The notes under the pieces are model-generated. The model saw nothing but the letters and a program-made list of their open reading frames with translations, searched no databases and was not told the origin of the DNA. A stretch of 46,936 bases of DNA, taken from IMG/VR virus record IMGVR_UViG_3300028173_000017; one strand, given 5' to 3'. The position numbers and the translations under genes were made by a program. Positions 15,189-25,415 of this stretch are shown one piece after another. The stretch comes from a virus. Within the stretch, counting starts at the first letter, position 1. Every line of letters begins with the position of its first letter.

Positions 15189-16223
15189 ATGACACGATAT
15201 GCACATAACGCATTTGCGTATGACACAATTTGTTTTGATGATGTACTTCTGGTACCACGCAAATCATCGATCCCCTCGAGGGATGACATTGTGATTGGTG
15301 CTGGCCTGCCTCGAGGGTTTGGTTATTTGTATCTTCCCGTCATTGCGGCGCCGATGACAACGATTTGTGAAGACGAGATGTGCAATGCCTTGGGTGATTG
15401 CGGTGGGATGGGTATTATCCATCGTTACAATACCGTTGAGGAACAGCTAGACATCATTCGCAAAGTGACTGCTCCGCTATACGGAGTTGCAATTGGCGCG
15501 ACAGGGGACTTTTTTGTACGTGCCAAAGCAGCATACGAATTATGTGGGACAAAGATTTTCCTAATCGATGTAGCCCATGGACATCATAAGAATGTTAAAG
15601 ACGCAATTCACCGATTACGGGATGAGTTTGGTGATAAAATTCTGATCATTGCTGGCAACGTTGCCACAGCAGCTGGTGCTGAGTTTCTTTATGAAGCAGG
15701 TGCTGATATGGTTCGTGTTGGCATCGGTGGAGGAAGTGTTTGCACCACTCGGGTTGTAACCGGTCACGGGTTGCCGACGCTTGAGTCTGTTTGTCGTGTC
15801 AAAATATCCCGCAGCGAGGCACCCATTATTGCAGACGGTGGCATTCGAAACAGTGGTGACGCTGTAAAGGCCCTCGCCGCCGGTGCAAGCTTTGTGATGC
15901 TTGGATCTGTTCTCGCAGGAACGAATGAGTGCCCAAACGGTGGAACATGGAATGGCAAGATCGCGTATGAAGGTATGGCATCTAATGTTGCCCAGCATCG
16001 CCGTAAGAAGCCTGGTGACAAGGACCCACAATACATTGAAGGTACCACAGCGATGATTGATCCAAAGGGATCTGTTGCTAGTGTAATGAAACCCTTCGCG
16101 GCGCGGATTCGAAGTGGCCTGTCATACTCAGGAGCACGAACAGTACCGGAGTTGTATGAACGCCACGAGTTTGTGAAGGTTTCATCTGCAACTCAGCAGG
16201 AGAATAAACCGCACGGAGCATAG
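15189..16223 (+). CDS. guaC: GMP reductase-like enzyme (IMPDH/GMPR TIM-barrel family, no CBS domain)
   Basis: catalytic loop GIGGGSVCTTRVVTGHGLPT as in E. coli GuaC GSVCTTR; about 344 aa; ATG 15189 with GGGGAGA RBS. Confidence 0.75.
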   Translation: MTRYAHNAFAYDTICFDDVLLVPRKSSIPSRDDIVIGAGLPRGFGYLYLPVIAAPMTTICEDEMCNALGDCGGMGIIHRYNTVEEQLDIIRKVTAPLYGVAIGATGDFFVRAKAAYELCGTKIFLIDVAHGHHKNVKDAIHRLRDEFGDKILIIAGNVATAAGAEFLYEAGADMVRVGIGGGSVCTTRVVTGHGLPTLESVCRVKISRSEAPIIADGGIRNSGDAVKALAAGASFVMLGSVLAGTNECPNGGTWNGKIAYEGMASNVAQHRRKKPGDKDPQYIEGTTAMIDPKGSVASVMKPFAARIRSGLSYSGARTVPELYERHEFVKVSSATQQENKPHGA

Positions 16224-16225
16224 TT

Positions 16226-16254
16226 TTGTACATCGCCATGGTGGCGGGTATAAT
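16226..16254 (+). promoter_or_regulatory. candidate promoter (TTGTAC, 17 nt, TATAAT) upstream of the NAD salvage genes
   Basis: 110-nt leader contains the 10-nt direct repeat GCCGGGAGGC twice (16286-16295, 16320-16329). Confidence 0.3.
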
Positions 16255-16367
16255 TAGATCATGAGGACAAGGGGTTCTCGTAAATGCCGGGAGGCAAACA
16301 GCGAAACATCATAATCACAGCCGGGAGGCTTAGGTTGATTGTGGTCCTAGCAAGGAAGAGTGTATAA

Positions 16368-17372
16368 ATGAGTGATAATAAAAAGCGTGAGATTGGAGTC
16401 GTGGTCGGGAGATTTCAGATTCCGGAGTTGCATGCAGGACACGTTGGTGTTCTGGATGAAGTGGCTGAGACCCACAACAAAGTGATCGTGTTCCTCGGGA
16501 TTTGTCCCGGTTTGGGAGACAAAAGGAATCCACTGGATTACGATCTACGAAAAAAGATGATTCAGGAAAAGTACCCTGAGATTATTGTTCTACCAATTTC
16601 AGACCAAGAATTCGACAAGCCCTGGTCTGCCCTCTTAGACAAGAAGATTCGAGAAGTGTGTCCTGTTGGAGATGTTACCCTTTACGGTAGCCGAGACAGC
16701 TTCATGTTGCGATACCATGGTGTCTTCCCAACCGTTGAGTTGGAGCAGAAGATTTACATCAGCGGAACACAGGTTCGAGCCGAAGCAGCACTACGTGCCA
16801 ACGGTTCAATCGACTTCCGCCGCGGTGTCATTTACGGTTCATACAATCGTTACCCGACTGCGTATGGCACGACCGACATGGCTGTCATCAACTACAAGAC
16901 GAATGAAGTCTTGATGGGTCGTAAGTATGAAGGTGCCAAGCTACGGTTCCCTGGCGGCTTTTTGCAGCCCGGAGAAACCCATGAGCAAGGAGCTCTCCGA
17001 GAATTCAACGAGGAAACCGGTGGGAACATTGAGGTGAGCAAGCCACTCAAATACATTGGCTCTTTCGTTATCGACGACTGGCGCTATCGAAGACGTCAGG
17101 ATAAAATCACGACTGTGTTTTTCACCGGTGTGTACTTGTGGGGACCCATTGAGGCGACAGATGATTTGTACGAAGTCGAATGGGTCAAAATCGAAAGGCT
17201 TAAGTGTGGACTGGATGTTTTGCCGTCAACGATTTCAAATTTCGTTTGCGATGAGCACGTTCCGCTTTGCAATGCACTAGTGGAGCACATTGAAAAAAAC
17301 ATGCCAAAGGAACGTACAAGACTGTCCCCGAAGAAAGTGAAGATCACATCGAAGAAAGAGGTGAAAGCATGA
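16368..17372 (+). CDS. natV: bifunctional NMN adenylyltransferase / Nudix hydrolase (NadM-Nudix, NatV-like)
   Basis: GRFQIPELHAGH (HxGH) nucleotidyltransferase motif; Nudix box GGFLQPGETHEQGALREFNEETG. Confidence 0.8.
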   Translation: MSDNKKREIGVVVGRFQIPELHAGHVGVLDEVAETHNKVIVFLGICPGLGDKRNPLDYDLRKKMIQEKYPEIIVLPISDQEFDKPWSALLDKKIREVCPVGDVTLYGSRDSFMLRYHGVFPTVELEQKIYISGTQVRAEAALRANGSIDFRRGVIYGSYNRYPTAYGTTDMAVINYKTNEVLMGRKYEGAKLRFPGGFLQPGETHEQGALREFNEETGGNIEVSKPLKYIGSFVIDDWRYRRRQDKITTVFFTGVYLWGPIEATDDLYEVEWVKIERLKCGLDVLPSTISNFVCDEHVPLCNALVEHIEKNMPKERTRLSPKKVKITSKKEVKA

Positions 17373-23915: not shown

Positions 23916-24548
23916 ATGAGTGTGAAGCTGGATACTAGGTCTGATATTTACTGTGACATGGACGGAGTGATCGTTGATTTTGTATCGACTGCAATCGCCG
24001 ATGTGAATAAATTCTTGGACAACGCATCGAGTGTTGAGAAGGAGTTCCTGAGTGTCGGGCAGGCACGAGCATACCGAAAGGTGCTGAAGGAGCTGGGTCC
24101 AGATTTCAGGACATCGACTGAGGATGACTTGAATTACAAGTCGGTTCGTAATTTGATGTTTTTCCTGATTGGCCGGGACCCGGGTGCATGGTTCGCAGGA
24201 CTTGGAAAGCAGGCTGACGGAGTTGAGTTGCTTTGGCCATTCCTGGTCACACGTGGCCGAACTGTTCGATTGCTTACTGCTGGCATTTCTCACCGCTCTG
24301 GCACTTCTGCTGAATCTGGAAAGGTCGTCTGGGCCCGCTCGAATTTGAGCCCAGAAGCAAAGGAGGTTATCTGCACGAGGGCTGCTGCAAAGCAGAATTA
24401 CGCTACAACTGATGGTGTGCCGAATGTTTTGATTGACGACAAACCTCGAACAATCAAGGAGTGGCAGGAAGCAGGAGGAATCGCAATCCTGCATGTAACT
24501 GGACAGAGTAAGGACACAATCTCTCGCTTGAAGAAGCTAGGCCTGTGA
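23916..24548 (+). CDS. HAD-superfamily 5'(3')-deoxyribonucleotidase-like (NT5C-like)
   Basis: motif I IYCDMDGVIVDF; C-terminal VLIDDKP. Confidence 0.6.
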   Translation: MSVKLDTRSDIYCDMDGVIVDFVSTAIADVNKFLDNASSVEKEFLSVGQARAYRKVLKELGPDFRTSTEDDLNYKSVRNLMFFLIGRDPGAWFAGLGKQADGVELLWPFLVTRGRTVRLLTAGISHRSGTSAESGKVVWARSNLSPEAKEVICTRAAAKQNYATTDGVPNVLIDDKPRTIKEWQEAGGIAILHVTGQSKDTISRLKKLGL

Positions 24549-24957
24549 ACATCTTTCGCAAAATGATTATACTTATATTGAGGGCGATGAAACGTCGCTG
24601 AACATAGGAGAATTTGACAAACAATGTGCCCGAACTGGTTTCGATTGGGCGAATAATATTGAATGTGCAAGGCGAAGGGCAGCGCGGCTTCGTAAAAACG
24701 CTGAAATGATAATTGCTAACGATAACTCGGAGTACTCTTACGCACAAGCTGCATAATTGCGAGGTGGCCAACTACCTTGATACCCAAAATTGGCTGGATG
24801 TTTTACCGCATTGAGATAAAAATGGTTGCTAAATGGTTCCCTGGCTCGCCAGGTGGGTCCCAGTGTCTAGAACGGGACGGGTGTTTTATAGGCAGACTTG
24901 CCGGTTGAGAAGAACCGGATAACCTTGTGAATGACATGAAATTGAAGCGTTCAACAC

Positions 24958-24985
24958 CCCGGTTCGACTCCGGGCGGGTACACCA
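24958..24985 (+). other. orphan tRNA 3'-half-like element (T-arm CCCGG-TTCGACT-CCGGG, acceptor 3' strand CGGGTAC, discriminator A, CCA)
   Basis: no matching 5' acceptor strand within 100 nt; sits in a 450-bp non-coding stretch. Confidence 0.35.
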
Positions 24986-25001
24986 ACGAAGAGAGGATGA
25001 T

Positions 25002-25415
25002 ATGAAAAACAAACGACGACCGCTGGAAAGCGCAGGTGTCTTGATTTACCATCCAACAAAGGAAGACTACGTTCTAGGAGTAACCCGGGGAATCTTCAGC
25101 ACCAAGTGGGGCTTGCCAGGAGGTAAGATCGAAGACGGTGAGTATGCGATTTATGCCGCTGTCAGAGAGCTGTACGAAGAAACAGGAATCATGCTGAGCA
25201 CATTGGATTTACTCCAAAAACCGTACGTCAGTCATGTAGCATACCGCGAGAGGTCGCACTTCTATAAGTGCCGTGTTCCTGTCAAGTTTCGAGGCATCCG
25301 CCTGAAGAAAGAAGGCTGGGTTGCCTGGGTTCCAGTTTCCTGGGTTAACAACGGCCCATTCGGTGCATACAATAAACGCCTCATGGCATTTTTCGATGGT
25401 GACGGGACAATTTAA
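25002..25415 (+). CDS. Nudix hydrolase
   Basis: Nudix box GGKIEDGEYAIYAAVRELYEETGI; AGAGGATGA RBS. Confidence 0.7.
   Translation: MKNKRRPLESAGVLIYHPTKEDYVLGVTRGIFSTKWGLPGGKIEDGEYAIYAAVRELYEETGIMLSTLDLLQKPYVSHVAYRERSHFYKCRVPVKFRGIRLKKEGWVAWVPVSWVNNGPFGAYNKRLMAFFDGDGTI

Follow-up and report, generated by a model that had tools for sequence, protein, structure and literature searches.

The purine genes of this phage are best explained as an auxiliary route of purine interconversion, in which a short adenylosuccinate synthetase (PurA) of ordinary chemistry is paired with a probable GMP reductase and no DNA base is replaced; we put the probability of this reading at roughly 0.7. The sequence evidence indicates that both enzymes would supply ordinary adenine nucleotides and not 2-aminoadenine.

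The source virus is a large marine phage. The window, by which we mean the whole stretch of DNA that was analysed, is 47 kb long and the genome is probably much larger; about 80 window ORFs were scanned with Pfam. The interval of interest carries the following features.

15189..16223, + strand: CBS-less IMPDH/GMPR-family (beta/alpha)8 enzyme, 344 aa (PF00478, E 1.5e-84, full length)
16368..17372, + strand: NMN adenylyltransferase fused to a Nudix domain, NatV-like (Pfam CTP_transf_like and NUDIX)
17369..18778, + strand: nicotinamide phosphoribosyltransferase, NadV/Nampt (Pfam NAMPT_N and NAPRTase; NCBIfam NF006629)
21123..22007, + strand: homing-endonuclease-like gene, DUF7487/TnsA-like nuclease (Pfam)
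22016..23032, + strand: short-form adenylosuccinate synthetase (PurA), 338 aa (PF00709, E 2.9e-78)
23033..23867, + strand: two conserved ORFs of 90 and 162 aa between purA and the HAD gene
23916..24548, + strand: HAD-superfamily phosphatase, a distant relative of NT5C, 5'(3')-deoxyribonucleotidase (PHROG 2643, partial)
24626..24985, + strand: phage-encoded tmRNA (ARAGORN; Rfam RF00023)
25002..25415, + strand: stand-alone Nudix hydrolase, 137 aa (NUDIX PF00293, E 1.1e-14)

All four ORFs named by an earlier sequence-only reading (a GMP reductase-like enzyme, the synthetase, a deoxynucleotidase-like HAD enzyme and a Nudix hydrolase) are present at these coordinates on the + strand with the identities that it gave, although the HAD protein is only a distant NT5C relative.

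The short-form synthetase and the PurZ question

From its family membership and residue states, the 338-aa ORF is predicted to be a genuine adenylosuccinate synthetase. E. coli PurA has 432 aa, and the earlier description of the ORF as about 90 aa shorter than bacterial PurA is therefore right. The NCBIfam scores are 267 bits for bacterial PurA, 172 for archaeal PurA and 135 for PurZ (NF038379), and phmmer against the PDB gave 176–187 bits for bacterial PurA, 125 for the P. horikoshii enzyme and 62–75 for PurZ; in both comparisons the ORF is closer to bacterial than to archaeal PurA. It lies below the equivalog cut-offs of all curated PurA models (267 versus 402 bits, NCBIfam). An AlphaFold2 model (pLDDT 89) has PurA as its top fold matches, with Foldseek TMq values of 0.81–0.83; the identity to PurZ is 23%.

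The motifs GDCGKGK and GGSNAGHT are both found in the ORF. Cys at Glu14 (E. coli PurA numbering) had been read correctly, but the accompanying statement that His41 is Ser was a numbering error: alignment to E. coli PurA shows that Ser replaces His37, and the ORF still has the catalytic His41, as its residue His46. The catalytic and ligand-binding residues of PurA (D13, K16, N38, G40, H41, T128, T129, R143, Q224, D231, V273, G298, T300, T301, R303, R305, K331, D333 and S414) are conserved both in the ORF and in all 16 clade members sampled, and at T239 the ORF has Thr and the clade either Thr or Ser. The GTP-specific Lys331, Asp333 and Ser414 are thus in the PurA state. The ORF differs from canonical PurA by W11->S, E14->C, H37->S, R131->T and R304->P.

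The ORF is a member of a large and widespread viral clade of shortened PurA of 326–356 aa, found on at least 521 IMG/VR contigs. This clade has 100% bootstrap support in a neighbour-joining tree built without archaeal PurA, with mean distances of 1.17 to bacterial PurA and 1.93 to PurZ, compared with 1.86 between bacterial PurA and PurZ. The viral clade is thus about as far from PurZ as is bacterial PurA. The suggestion that PurZ derives from the clade of this synthetase is unsupported. Among 120 homologues, GD[CTE]GKGK is matched by 114 and NAGH[TI], TTGRxR and NKxD by all 120. Near the catalytic Asp the clade shows W11->Y/A/F/H/S, E14->C/T and H37->C/G/S; R304->P is a further change and R131->T occurs in some members.

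These clade-wide changes at positions 11, 14, 37, 304 and partly 131, of which 11 and 14 flank the catalytic Asp, would be consistent with a substrate range shifted by altered P-loop surroundings, with dIMP, XMP or GMP as the acceptor, or another amino acid as the donor, and a product other than succinyl-AMP; the position of the ORF under every curated PurA cut-off points the same way. We consider this unlikely: the known contact residues for IMP, aspartate/hadacidin and guanine are all invariant, Tyr11 is also found in two bona fide bacterial or megaphage PurA of the sample, and R303, the reader of the ribose 2'-OH, is kept (PMC8342488).

The sequence-only reading had also raised the PurZ question. 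In a PurZ-type pathway the short synthetase would open dZTP synthesis by joining dGMP to aspartate, dATP would be cleared or dGMP supplied by the HAD nucleotidase and the Nudix, and the phage DNA would carry 2-aminoadenine. The two deletions of the short architecture are indeed common to archaeal PurA and PurZ, position 11 lacks Trp, Cys/Thr occupies position 14, at which PurZ has Thr, and nucleotide-hydrolase genes lie close by. The discriminating residues argue strongly against it. The ORF keeps Asp13, a position at which all 147 phage PurZ/PurZ0 sequences have Ser (PMC12884076), as well as G298, R303 and the K331/D333/S414 GTP motif. On alignment, S14, T262, K267, F295, N297 and Y298 of phiVC8 PurZ correspond to D, G, R, K, D and V of the ORF, which is the PurA state at each. 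The 135 bits for the curated PurZ model fall far short of its cut-off of 300, and the tree separates the ORF from PurZ as it does bacterial PurA.

Partners of a Z cluster are also absent from the 47 kb analysed. Searches of the six-frame window and of 160 related viral loci gave no homologues of DatZ, MazZ, DpoZ, PrimPol or DUF5664, and none of datZ, mazZ and dpoZ lies beside any of the 80 family members; DutZ and DmtZ have no homologues in the window. In the related loci the only matches to a Wayne DmtZ-DutZ probe were genes with a Dut domain (dUTPase-like), and its DmtZ/NDT half matched nothing. The earlier remark that the window has no HD or MazG-type genes was confirmed by Pfam over the roughly 80 ORFs and by phmmer with DatZ and MazZ over the six-frame translation. 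Neither the HAD protein nor the Nudix has homology to DatZ (HD fold) or MazZ (MazG fold), and nothing links either of them to dATP or dGTP clearance, which leaves the DatZ/MazZ-like roles proposed for them without a basis. The PurZ identity of the synthetase is thus largely refuted by sequence (Asp13, the PurZ HMM score, the tree and the missing partners), and we regard a PurZ-type pathway as highly improbable. Canonical PurA, offered earlier as an equal alternative, is the one supported, with Asp13, Gly298, Arg303, Lys331 and Asp333 retained, and normal adenine is expected in the virion DNA.

The CBS-less enzyme and the proposed pathway

The 344-aa enzyme, for which an exact match is on record (P0121), contains GGGSVCTTR, keeps the catalytic Cys and Thr of GSVCTT and the flap-end Glu, and has no CBS insert. 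It falls below every IMPDH and GMPR cut-off in NCBIfam. Against the PDB it scores 222 bits with IMPDH and 134 bits with classical GMPR (39% identity to GuaB versus 33% to GuaC), but similarity does not discriminate between the two activities because T. brucei GMPR scores almost as high as the IMPDHs (201 bits). Water activation in IMPDH needs an Arg-Tyr dyad and GMPR does not, as described in the Hedstrom-laboratory literature. The flap of the phage enzyme is 10 aa shorter than that of E. coli GuaB and is without the DRYF Arg-Tyr dyad, which favours a GMP reductase. GMGS is changed to GMAS, and the Gly415 position has Ala, as in T. brucei GMPR, a proven IMPDH-like GMPR (PMC4701174). On these grounds the enzyme is probably a GMP reductase.

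It is possible, but doubtful, that the enzyme is instead a genuine IMP dehydrogenase that has no CBS domain and oxidises IMP to XMP. In that case the two enzymes that lead away from the IMP branch point would both be phage-encoded, and the synthesis of AMP and of GMP would both be boosted with no G-to-A conversion. The top PDB match is a delta-CBS IMPDH, the top NCBIfam model is TIGR01302 (223 bits, although the IMPDH cut-off is 481), relatives are labelled IMP dehydrogenase by JGI, and in the wider clade a YRGM motif resembles that of IMPDH and the short flap carries a conserved Trp-Arg that could supply a base. This Trp-Arg is lost in the window protein (HRRKK), and the absent dyad segment, the Ala at Gly415 and the near-equal T. 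brucei GMPR score all weigh against dehydrogenation.

With the 344-aa enzyme taken as a reductase, GMP + NADPH would most probably be converted to IMP + NH3; the phage PurA would then convert IMP, L-aspartate and GTP to succinyl-AMP, GDP and Pi, and host PurB would finish with AMP and fumarate. A search for PurB homologues gave none in the window and none in 166 related loci. Overall, the phage would thereby be able to turn G ribonucleotides into A ribonucleotides during infection; we infer these substrates, the direction of the reductase and the physiological purpose. The G-to-A conversion proposed earlier is thus plausible and is our preferred reading, with the reductase assignment as its less secure part.

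The two genes are not always linked. In 16 of 80 IMG/VR loci the short purA has an IMPDH-like gene no more than 10 kb away (about 2 kb downstream or less in 12), and a short purA is nearby in only four of the 80 best IMPDH-like loci. The pair recurs in a syntenic relative (L001) and in an unrelated DnaE/GroEL/ClpP phage contig (L098).

Neighbouring genes

Two separate nucleotide-handling genes, the HAD phosphatase and the Nudix, are of a generic kind. The HAD protein has DxDGV and DD motifs but itself has no Pfam or NCBIfam hit, Pfam NT5C included; PHROG 2643 matches residues 92–202 at 6.6e-17. Pfam NT5C is matched weakly by 20 of 44 relatives (best E 5e-07), among all of which D14, D16, K136/K159 and D174-D175 are invariant. 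Its AlphaFold2 model (pLDDT 96) matches generic capped HADs in the PDB, cdN/mdN included, with TM of about 0.45–0.55. The Nudix protein has an intact Nudix box, GGKIEDGEYAIYAAVRELYEETG, with weak generic PDB and NCBIfam matches only (MutT, DIPP, Ap4A hydrolase), and its ATG at 25002 stands after the tmRNA end and a GAGAGGA ribosome-binding site.

The NadV/NatV pair, the homing-endonuclease-like gene and the tmRNA also lie in the interval and had gone unmentioned. The pair (16368–18778) is an NAD+ salvage pair of the NARP2 type, defined as Nampt plus Nmnat (10.1101/2024.02.11.579819), and sits between the two purine genes. NadV scores 631 bits with NF006629 (cut-off 405), and the NatV-like product has weak NCBIfam matches to bifunctional NMNAT/Nudix models; the two genes overlap by 4 bp. 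The homing-endonuclease-like gene (DUF7487, 5.2e-28; Tn7_TnsA-like_N, 1.8e-05) lies 8 bp upstream of purA and is missing from this position in L001. The 90-aa and 162-aa ORFs have no Pfam, NCBIfam or PHROG hit; their L001 counterparts have 88 and 160 aa, in the same order. The tmRNA matches the full Rfam model at 92 bits (gathering score 47), and its tag, ANDNSEYSYAQAA, is identical in L001. Genes for RNA repair and translation rescue are also numerous in the region: two RNA ligases, a PNK-like HAD, a CCA-adding enzyme, tRNAs and the tmRNA.

ATP-depleting immunity includes ATP-to-ITP deaminases of the RADAR or CRISPR-Cad1 type and ATP nucleosidases. The purine genes, the NARP2 pair and the Nudix could conceivably rebuild an adenylate pool destroyed by such host immunity, with the Nudix converting ITP to IMP, PurA converting IMP to succinyl-AMP and the reductase adding IMP from GMP. 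In this phage and its close relative these genes are intermingled with those of an anti-defence pathway of a proven type, NARP2, in a location with many RNA-repair and translation-rescue genes. Across the clade, though, purA is surrounded by replication and nucleotide genes (DnaE-type polymerase, dUTPase, ClpP) and not by NAD+ genes, with NadV near purA in two and NatV in one of 80 IMG/VR loci, and we found no paper tying PurA to anti-defence; a counter-defence role is improbable.

Comparison with known systems

The HAD protein shares the HAD core, the DxDGV/DD motifs and a helical cap with NT5C 5'(3')-deoxyribonucleotidases (PF06941) and phage PHROG 2643, but its fold matches cdN/mdN no better than beta-phosphoglucomutase. 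As in the NARP2 of Vibrio phage KVP40 (NadV and NatV), the Nampt and NMNAT-Nudix genes are adjacent; NARP2 is not part of the purine genes and is placed between them only here and in the close relative.

The 344-aa enzyme has the barrel, the GSxCTT Cys loop and the flap-end Glu in common with GMP reductases (GuaC; T. brucei, PDB 6JIG; M. smegmatis GuaB1, 7OY9) and with delta-CBS IMPDHs. It resembles GuaC in its short flap and missing dyad, classical GMPR in the absent CBS domain and the T. brucei enzyme in the Ala for Gly415, whereas overall its sequence is closer to IMPDH than to GuaC and its flap sequence is unlike either family.

PurZ/PurZ0 (phiVC8, 6FM1; S-2L, 7ODX; Gordonia phage Archimedes, 7VF6) are, like the ORF, phage-encoded short-form PurA homologues that leave the lyase step to the host. 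At position 11 PurZ is aromatic but not Trp, and the ORF is likewise not Trp; at position 14 PurZ has Thr and the viral short PurA Cys or Thr. PurZ has Ser13, Thr262, Lys/Leu267 and an ATP pocket of Phe295, Asn/Gln297 and Tyr298 where the ORF has D, G, R, K, D and V; identity is 23–29%, and the ORF is without datZ, mazZ, dpoZ, dutZ or dmtZ neighbours.

The archaeal short PurA (Pyrococcus horikoshii PH0438, 2D7U/5K7X; NF003295) belongs to the same 337–339-aa class with the same deletions, and ORF residues 6–286 are colinear with positions 3–285 of the 337 in NF003295. Its structures match the ORF model with TM of 0.74–0.75 and 31% identity over 293 columns. The label 'archaeal-type' thus holds for the architecture and not for the sequence, which is nearer to bacterial PurA. 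Bacterial PurA (E. coli, 1ADE; H. pylori, 9F17; T. thermophilus, 6JRQ) shares the Pfam family and fold of the ORF. Two deletions, at approximately E. coli 150–215 and 345–400, make the ORF about 94 aa shorter, and it has the viral P-loop GD(C/T)GKGK in place of GDEGKGK. Bacteroidota and other bacterial PurA, with 36–41% identity, are the nearest sequences outside the viral clade.

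The short synthetase as a PurA

The sequence-only reading had proposed a purine-nucleotide module built on four ORFs, all of which proved to be real, with the following positions:

15189-16223, +, IMPDH/GMPR-family barrel (PF00478), 344 aa
22016-23032, +, synthetase (PF00709), 338 aa
23916-24548, +, gene with HAD motifs
25002-25415, +, Nudix gene with an intact Nudix box

PF00709 spans the full length of the synthetase (the ORF in what follows) with an E value of 2.9e-78, at 338 aa compared with 432 aa for Escherichia coli PurA, the numbering of which is used here unless stated otherwise. 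The residues D13, K16, N38, G40, H41, T128, T129, R143, Q224, D231, V273, G298, T300, T301, R303, R305, K331, D333 and S414 are kept in the ORF and in all 16 members of its clade that were sampled; at position 239 (T239) the ORF has Thr and the sampled clade has Thr or Ser. Judged by alignment, the ORF keeps all the residues with which PurA is known to bind IMP, aspartate or guanine. The elements of GTP specificity are present as NKSD at 281-284 and Ser332 (equivalent to S414), and of the best 120 database homologues every one has NKxD, TTGRxR and NAGH[TI], and 114 have GD[CTE]GKGK. The simplest reading is that the ORF, as an adenylosuccinate synthetase homologue, would convert IMP, aspartate and GTP to succinyl-AMP.

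The P-loop departs from the canonical QWGDEGKGK, reading QSGDCGKGK in the ORF and Q[YAFH]GD[CT]GKGK in the clade. Around the catalytic Asp, Trp11 is replaced by Tyr, Ala, Phe or His (Ser in the ORF), Glu14 by Cys or Thr and His37 by Cys, Gly or Ser; further changes in the clade are Arg131 to Thr in part of it and Arg304 to Pro. The Glu14-to-Cys change had been called correctly from the sequence. The Ser of GGSNAGHT had been assigned to position 41; on alignment with E. coli PurA it replaces His37, and the catalytic His41 is kept. It is mainly the changes near the catalytic Asp that keep a shifted substrate preference in play, and we consider it quite improbable that the short viral clade owes a non-canonical substrate to its altered P-loop (Trp11 to Ser, Glu14 to Cys). 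The ORF does not reach the curated PurA equivalog cut-offs (267 versus 402 bits for NF002223, 241 versus 395 bits for TIGR00184 and 172 versus 368 bits for the archaeal NF003295), partly because of two deletions.

The earlier label 'archaeal-type' is fair for the shape of the protein, since ORF residues 6-286 are colinear with the archaeal HMM and the short viral clade has the same architecture, through two deletions, as archaeal PurA and PurZ. The label does not carry over to the sequence: three independent similarity measures place the ORF nearer to bacterial than to archaeal PurA. In NCBIfam the bacterial PurA models score 233-267 bits and the archaeal model 172 bits; phmmer against solved structures gives 176-187 bits for bacterial PurA, 125 bits for Pyrococcus horikoshii PurA and 62-75 bits for PurZ/PurZ0; and an AlphaFold2 model of the ORF (pLDDT 89) has its closest structural matches in bacterial and eukaryotic PurA (TMq 0.81-0.83). 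The archaeal comparison rests on these HMM, phmmer and Foldseek scores because the tree described below includes no archaeal PurA sequence.

PurZ and the Z-cluster genes

As the synthetase was thought to be a possible PurZ, the succino-amino-deoxyadenylate synthase of 2-aminoadenine (Z) genomes, we mapped its residues against the PurZ of phages phiVC8 and S-2L, the PurZ0 of phage Wayne and E. coli PurA. Asp13 is replaced by Ser in 147/147 phage PurZ/PurZ0 (100%) and is Asp in 99% of the PurA group (PMC12884076). In the ORF this residue is Asp16 (ORF numbering; GDCGKGK), and Asp is found in 16/16 sampled clade members and in 114/114 matched P-loops. Arg303, which reads the ribose 2'-OH in PurA and is displaced in PurZ (PMC8342488), is kept as Arg254 of the ORF and is invariant in the clade, where PurZ would have Lys or Leu, a loss that gives it its preference for deoxyribonucleotides. 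Gly298 is likewise kept. In PurZ, the residues that hold the ATP adenine are F295 and Y298 (10.1101/2025.10.22.683976); at the PurZ-diagnostic positions listed in the same work the ORF has S14, D16 and G249 (ORF numbering), of which S14 alone differs from PurA.

The scores and the tree agree with the residues. With the NCBIfam PurZ model NF038379 the ORF scores 135 bits, where 300 are required. All of the first 43 PDB fold matches of the ORF model are PurA or PurZ, with the PurZ entries aligning at 23% identity. A neighbour-joining tree (distance-based, 326 columns, 100 bootstraps) places the ORF inside a separate short viral clade with 100% support and not within PurZ/PurZ0; the mean distance is 1.17 from the ORF to bacterial PurA and 1.93 from the ORF to PurZ, much the same as the 1.86 between bacterial PurA and PurZ. 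The proposal that the ORF belongs to the clade that gave rise to PurZ is not supported, and the reading of the predicted enzyme as PurZ is rejected. An activity on dGMP, aspartate and (d)ATP, with Z in the virion DNA, is accordingly very remote, the least probable of the alternatives that we weighed.

Z-cluster genes flank purZ in true Z phages, as seen in the phiVC8, S-2L and Wayne records. We used phmmer with DatZ (phiVC8 and S-2L), S-2L MazZ, DpoZ, S-2L PrimPol, Wayne gp50 (the DUF5664-position protein), Wayne DmtZ-DutZ and the Wayne DNA polymerase as queries; none matched the six-frame translation of the window at E values up to 10. Pfam scans of about 80 window ORFs found no HD, MazG, DUF550, DUF5664, dUTPase, NDT or DNA-polymerase family, which bears out the earlier observation that the window has no HD or MazG genes. 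In 80 related IMG/VR loci (1.2 Mb), searched to 10 kb from purA, and in 80 loci picked for the IMPDH-like gene, the same queries found nothing but Dut-domain matches, so that DatZ, MazZ and DpoZ are missing from the window and from these 160 related loci. The Dut-domain matches are to Wayne DmtZ-DutZ (14/80 purA loci and 67/80 IMPDH-like loci) and all lie within residues 146-306; they are taken as dUTPase-like genes because only the Dut domain is covered, and a PurZ0-like system was rejected for them, the DmtZ/NDT half being unmatched. The part of the genome outside the window matters little for the Z question because the enzyme itself fails the PurZ tests. At the level of sequence these results settle that the phage should not be counted as a candidate Z-genome phage.

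The HAD and Nudix genes had been suggested as counterparts of DatZ and MazZ. They have HAD and Nudix folds rather than the HD (YfbR-like) fold of DatZ, a dATP triphosphohydrolase, or the all-alpha MazG/HisE fold of MazZ, a (d)GTP pyrophosphatase, and the suggestion is dropped. The HAD gene had been described as deoxynucleotidase-like. It has a partial PHROG match to '5'-3' deoxyribonucleotidase', and its DxDGV and DD motifs are invariant in 44 relatives; it has no Pfam or NCBIfam match of its own, the NT5C family (PF06941) matching 20 of the 44 relatives weakly (best E value 5e-07) and not the window protein. A search of PDB sequences gave no match. Its model (pLDDT 96) resembles generic capped HAD phosphatases at a TM score of about 0.5, with cdN/mdN no better than beta-phosphoglucomutase, and no substrate was assigned from the fold search.

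The viral clade and the genome setting

At E ≤ 1e-10, 5958 proteins match the synthetase; the best 120 of these are 326-356 aa in length, with identities mostly of 51-63%, and Tara and other marine samples account for many of them. A short-PurA relative is encoded on at least 521 IMG/VR contigs, several of them being 130-285 kb, phage-like and with small ORFs on one strand. The best match among deposited phage records has 40.5% identity and lies in a 735-kb uncultured megaphage; no isolate homologue above 41% identity was found in the phage collection searched. In a set of 185 579 species-representative genomes, ordinary cellular PurA proteins reach 36-41% identity at best, mostly in Bacteroidota. 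The short form occurs there in only two Saccharibacteria-type MAG contigs (50% identity, GDCGKGK), which nest within the viral clade in the neighbour-joining tree:

L015 (MAG contig):2902-4074, short-form PurA
L016 (MAG contig):2992-4053, short-form PurA

The neighbours of these copies (M23/LysM peptidase, TrmB, RusA, DUF4411 and M78) make an ambiguous context, and the copies could reflect horizontal transfer or a mis-binned or integrated element; the idea that the clade is confined to viruses was rejected on their account. We found no study of the short viral PurA clade in the literature searched. As a predicted enzyme the ORF is an auxiliary phage PurA, and the short-form viral clade to which it belongs is uncharacterised, large, apparently unstudied and common in large marine phages, with thousands of metagenomic proteins.

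The window comes from a large phage genome and has almost all of its genes on the + strand. Megablast of the interval 15189-25415 (10.5 kb) matched none of 50 697 phage records, which left no annotated close relative to work from. The syntenic metagenomic contig L001 (53.6 kb) has a PurA that is 85% identical and an IMPDH-like protein that is 87% identical. The window also carries three tRNAs (Gly, Arg and Thr), a tmRNA, several homing-endonuclease-like genes, a GH25 lysozyme and a set of RNA-repair genes. Features of this setting are as follows:

5552-8164, +, 870-aa major vault protein-like gene (shoulder and repeat domains, SPFH/Band 7; PF11978, E = 4.6e-21), unusual for a phage
1362-2021, 12140-12970, 14282-15187, 31837-33588 and 5194-5423, RNA-repair/translation-maintenance set (two RNA ligase-family genes, PNK-like HAD, CCA-adding/poly(A) polymerase-family enzyme, the three tRNAs)
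16368-18778, +, NMNAT-Nudix fusion (NatV-like) and Nampt (NadV), the genes overlapping by 4 bp, between the two purine genes
21123-22007, +, DUF7487/TnsA-like nuclease gene, 8 bp upstream of purA; L001 lacks it at this site
13513-14238 (-), 25480-26340 and 40822-41436 (NUMOD3/HNH), further homing-endonuclease-like genes
24626-24985, +, tmRNA, complete and in one piece (Rfam 92 bits; tag ANDNSEYSYAQAA), with the HAD gene on one side and the Nudix gene on the other
44024-46936, +, tandem run of five small paralogous ORFs, each about 105-160 aa long and alike at the N-terminus (e.g. MTPAQSHI..MNCIPDLSTL; pairwise BLASTP E values down to 6e-18)

The nuclease gene at 21123-22007 has the look of an inserted homing endonuclease. 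L001 carries the tmRNA of the window as well (L001:14937-15296), and the two tags are identical. L001 also has a TROVE (Ro60-like) and VWA gene just after purA (11406-12746), which the window does not have. The otherwise unrelated ORFs starting at 8256, 12140, 12967 and 34241 have a similar amphipathic N-terminus (e.g. MKLLREYIGMLLAE, MKLLREYIEILLER, MKMLRQYIRRVLRE and NNNLREFVNEVL), and this common motif may be a shared targeting or interaction helix.

Probable purine interconversion

The gene at 15189-16223 encodes a full-length IMPDH/GMPR barrel (PF00478, E = 1.5e-84) with the motif GGGSVCTTR, and belongs to a big, marine, viral IMPDH-like clade of proteins of 332-386 aa that are 45-51% identical. 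C185, T187 and E284 (GSxCTT and the Glu at the end of the flap) are invariant in the alignment. IMPDH uses an Arg-Tyr dyad to hydrolyse E-XMP*, and GMPR does not need the dyad. Alignment with E. coli GuaB and GuaC shows that the CBS pair is absent (about 130 aa of GuaB are missing) and that the flap is ten residues shorter than in GuaB, the missing segment being MSKGSSDRYF, with the Asp-Arg-Tyr-Phe motif, as in GuaC. GMAS takes the place of GMGS, so that Gly415 (human IMPDH2 numbering), one of two IMP-site residues substituted in Trypanosoma brucei GMPR (PMC4701174), is Ala here, as it is in that enzyme. Because the dyad segment and the CBS pair are missing, the motif is GMAS and the dyad is needed by IMPDH alone, the 344-aa enzyme is favoured as a GMP reductase, with a probability of roughly 0.6.

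A true IMPDH is the weaker candidate, possible but rather unlikely: in a PDB search the protein scores 222 bits against delta-CBS IMPDH and 134 bits against classical GMPR, a similarity that favours IMPDH, set against an enzyme with Ala at Gly415 and neither the Arg-Tyr dyad segment nor the CBS pair. The overall similarity is indecisive because T. brucei GMPR, a proven reductase of the IMPDH-like type, reaches 201 bits. All NCBIfam cut-offs are missed, with 223 bits versus 481 for TIGR01302 (IMPDH) and 145-180 bits versus 344-675 for the GMPR models.

With GMP reductase as the preferred identity, the IMPDH-like enzyme would convert GMP to IMP, the phage PurA would convert IMP to succinyl-AMP and the host would convert succinyl-AMP to AMP; the lyase step must be the host's because neither the window nor 166 related loci yielded a PurB homologue. 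The G-to-A conversion proposed earlier stands as an idea, with PurA and a GMP-reductase-like gene in place and the identity of the reductase favoured only. A tight purA/IMPDH-like operon is only partly borne out. An IMPDH-like partner lies within 10 kb of the short purA in 16/80 purA loci, usually 1-2 kb downstream, and in only four of the best 80 IMPDH-like loci is a short purA found nearby; the coupling is not obligate. A dUTPase-like gene lies at a median of 756 bp from the IMPDH-like gene in 67/80 marine phage loci (L179-L258), a much tighter linkage than that of the IMPDH-like gene with purA. In an unrelated phage contig that encodes GroEL and ClpP, the purA and IMPDH-like pair is beside a DnaE-type polymerase and a dUTPase, and the genes most often identified beside purA are of the replication, protease and RNA-ligase types. 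The simplest reading is that the purine genes would serve auxiliary purine interconversion in the nucleotide-supply part of these genomes. The GC content of the related loci (29-49%, with a median of 37% for purA loci; the window itself has 47%) is moderate to low, which is compatible with an extra demand for A and suggestive at best.

Three marine contigs with purine genes (L098:3375-11023, L096 and L097) also encode DnaE-type DNA polymerase III alpha, GroEL/GroES, ClpP, glutaredoxin, ThyX and class II RNR, and represent a separate lineage of large phages in which host-like genes are numerous.

The NatV/NadV pair has the gene features of NARP2, being a phage Nampt with an adjacent, overlapping Nmnat gene; Nampt scores 631 bits against an NCBIfam cut-off of 405 and has PF18127 and PF04095. 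NARP2 consists of Nampt and Nmnat and rebuilds NAD+ against NAD+-depleting defences (10.1101/2024.02.11.579819). The purine genes of this phage lie amid anti-defence and RNA-repair genes, a setting that invites the speculative idea of adenylate restoration: the purine genes, the Nudix gene and the putative NARP2 pair would form an 'adenine-cofactor restoration' island that rebuilds AMP/ATP (ITP or GMP to IMP to succinyl-AMP) and NAD+. We regard such an island as a long shot; purA is almost never next to NadV or NatV across the clade (2/80 and 1/80 loci), and no literature was found in support of an anti-defence role for purA. Equally doubtful is the further step, that restoration would follow depletion or deamination by host abortive-infection systems, as an ATP counterpart of the NAD+ reconstitution pathways. 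Our literature searches on phage PurA or GMPR as auxiliary or anti-defence genes turned up nothing relevant.

If the IMPDH-like enzyme is a GMP reductase, auxiliary purine interconversion in these phages would amount to a two-step G-to-A ribonucleotide converter, comparable for purines to the shifting of pyrimidine pools by dCMP-deaminase and thymidylate-synthase genes. Such a converter would inform our view of how viruses reprogram host nucleotide pools, and would not be surprising in kind. For metagenomic phage contigs, Asp13, Gly298, Arg303, Lys331 and Asp333 offer a quick residue test of PurA versus PurZ: where PurZ has Ser14, Thr262, Lys/Leu267, Phe295, Asn/Gln297 and Tyr298, the ORF has Asp, Gly, Arg, Lys, Asp and Val, respectively.
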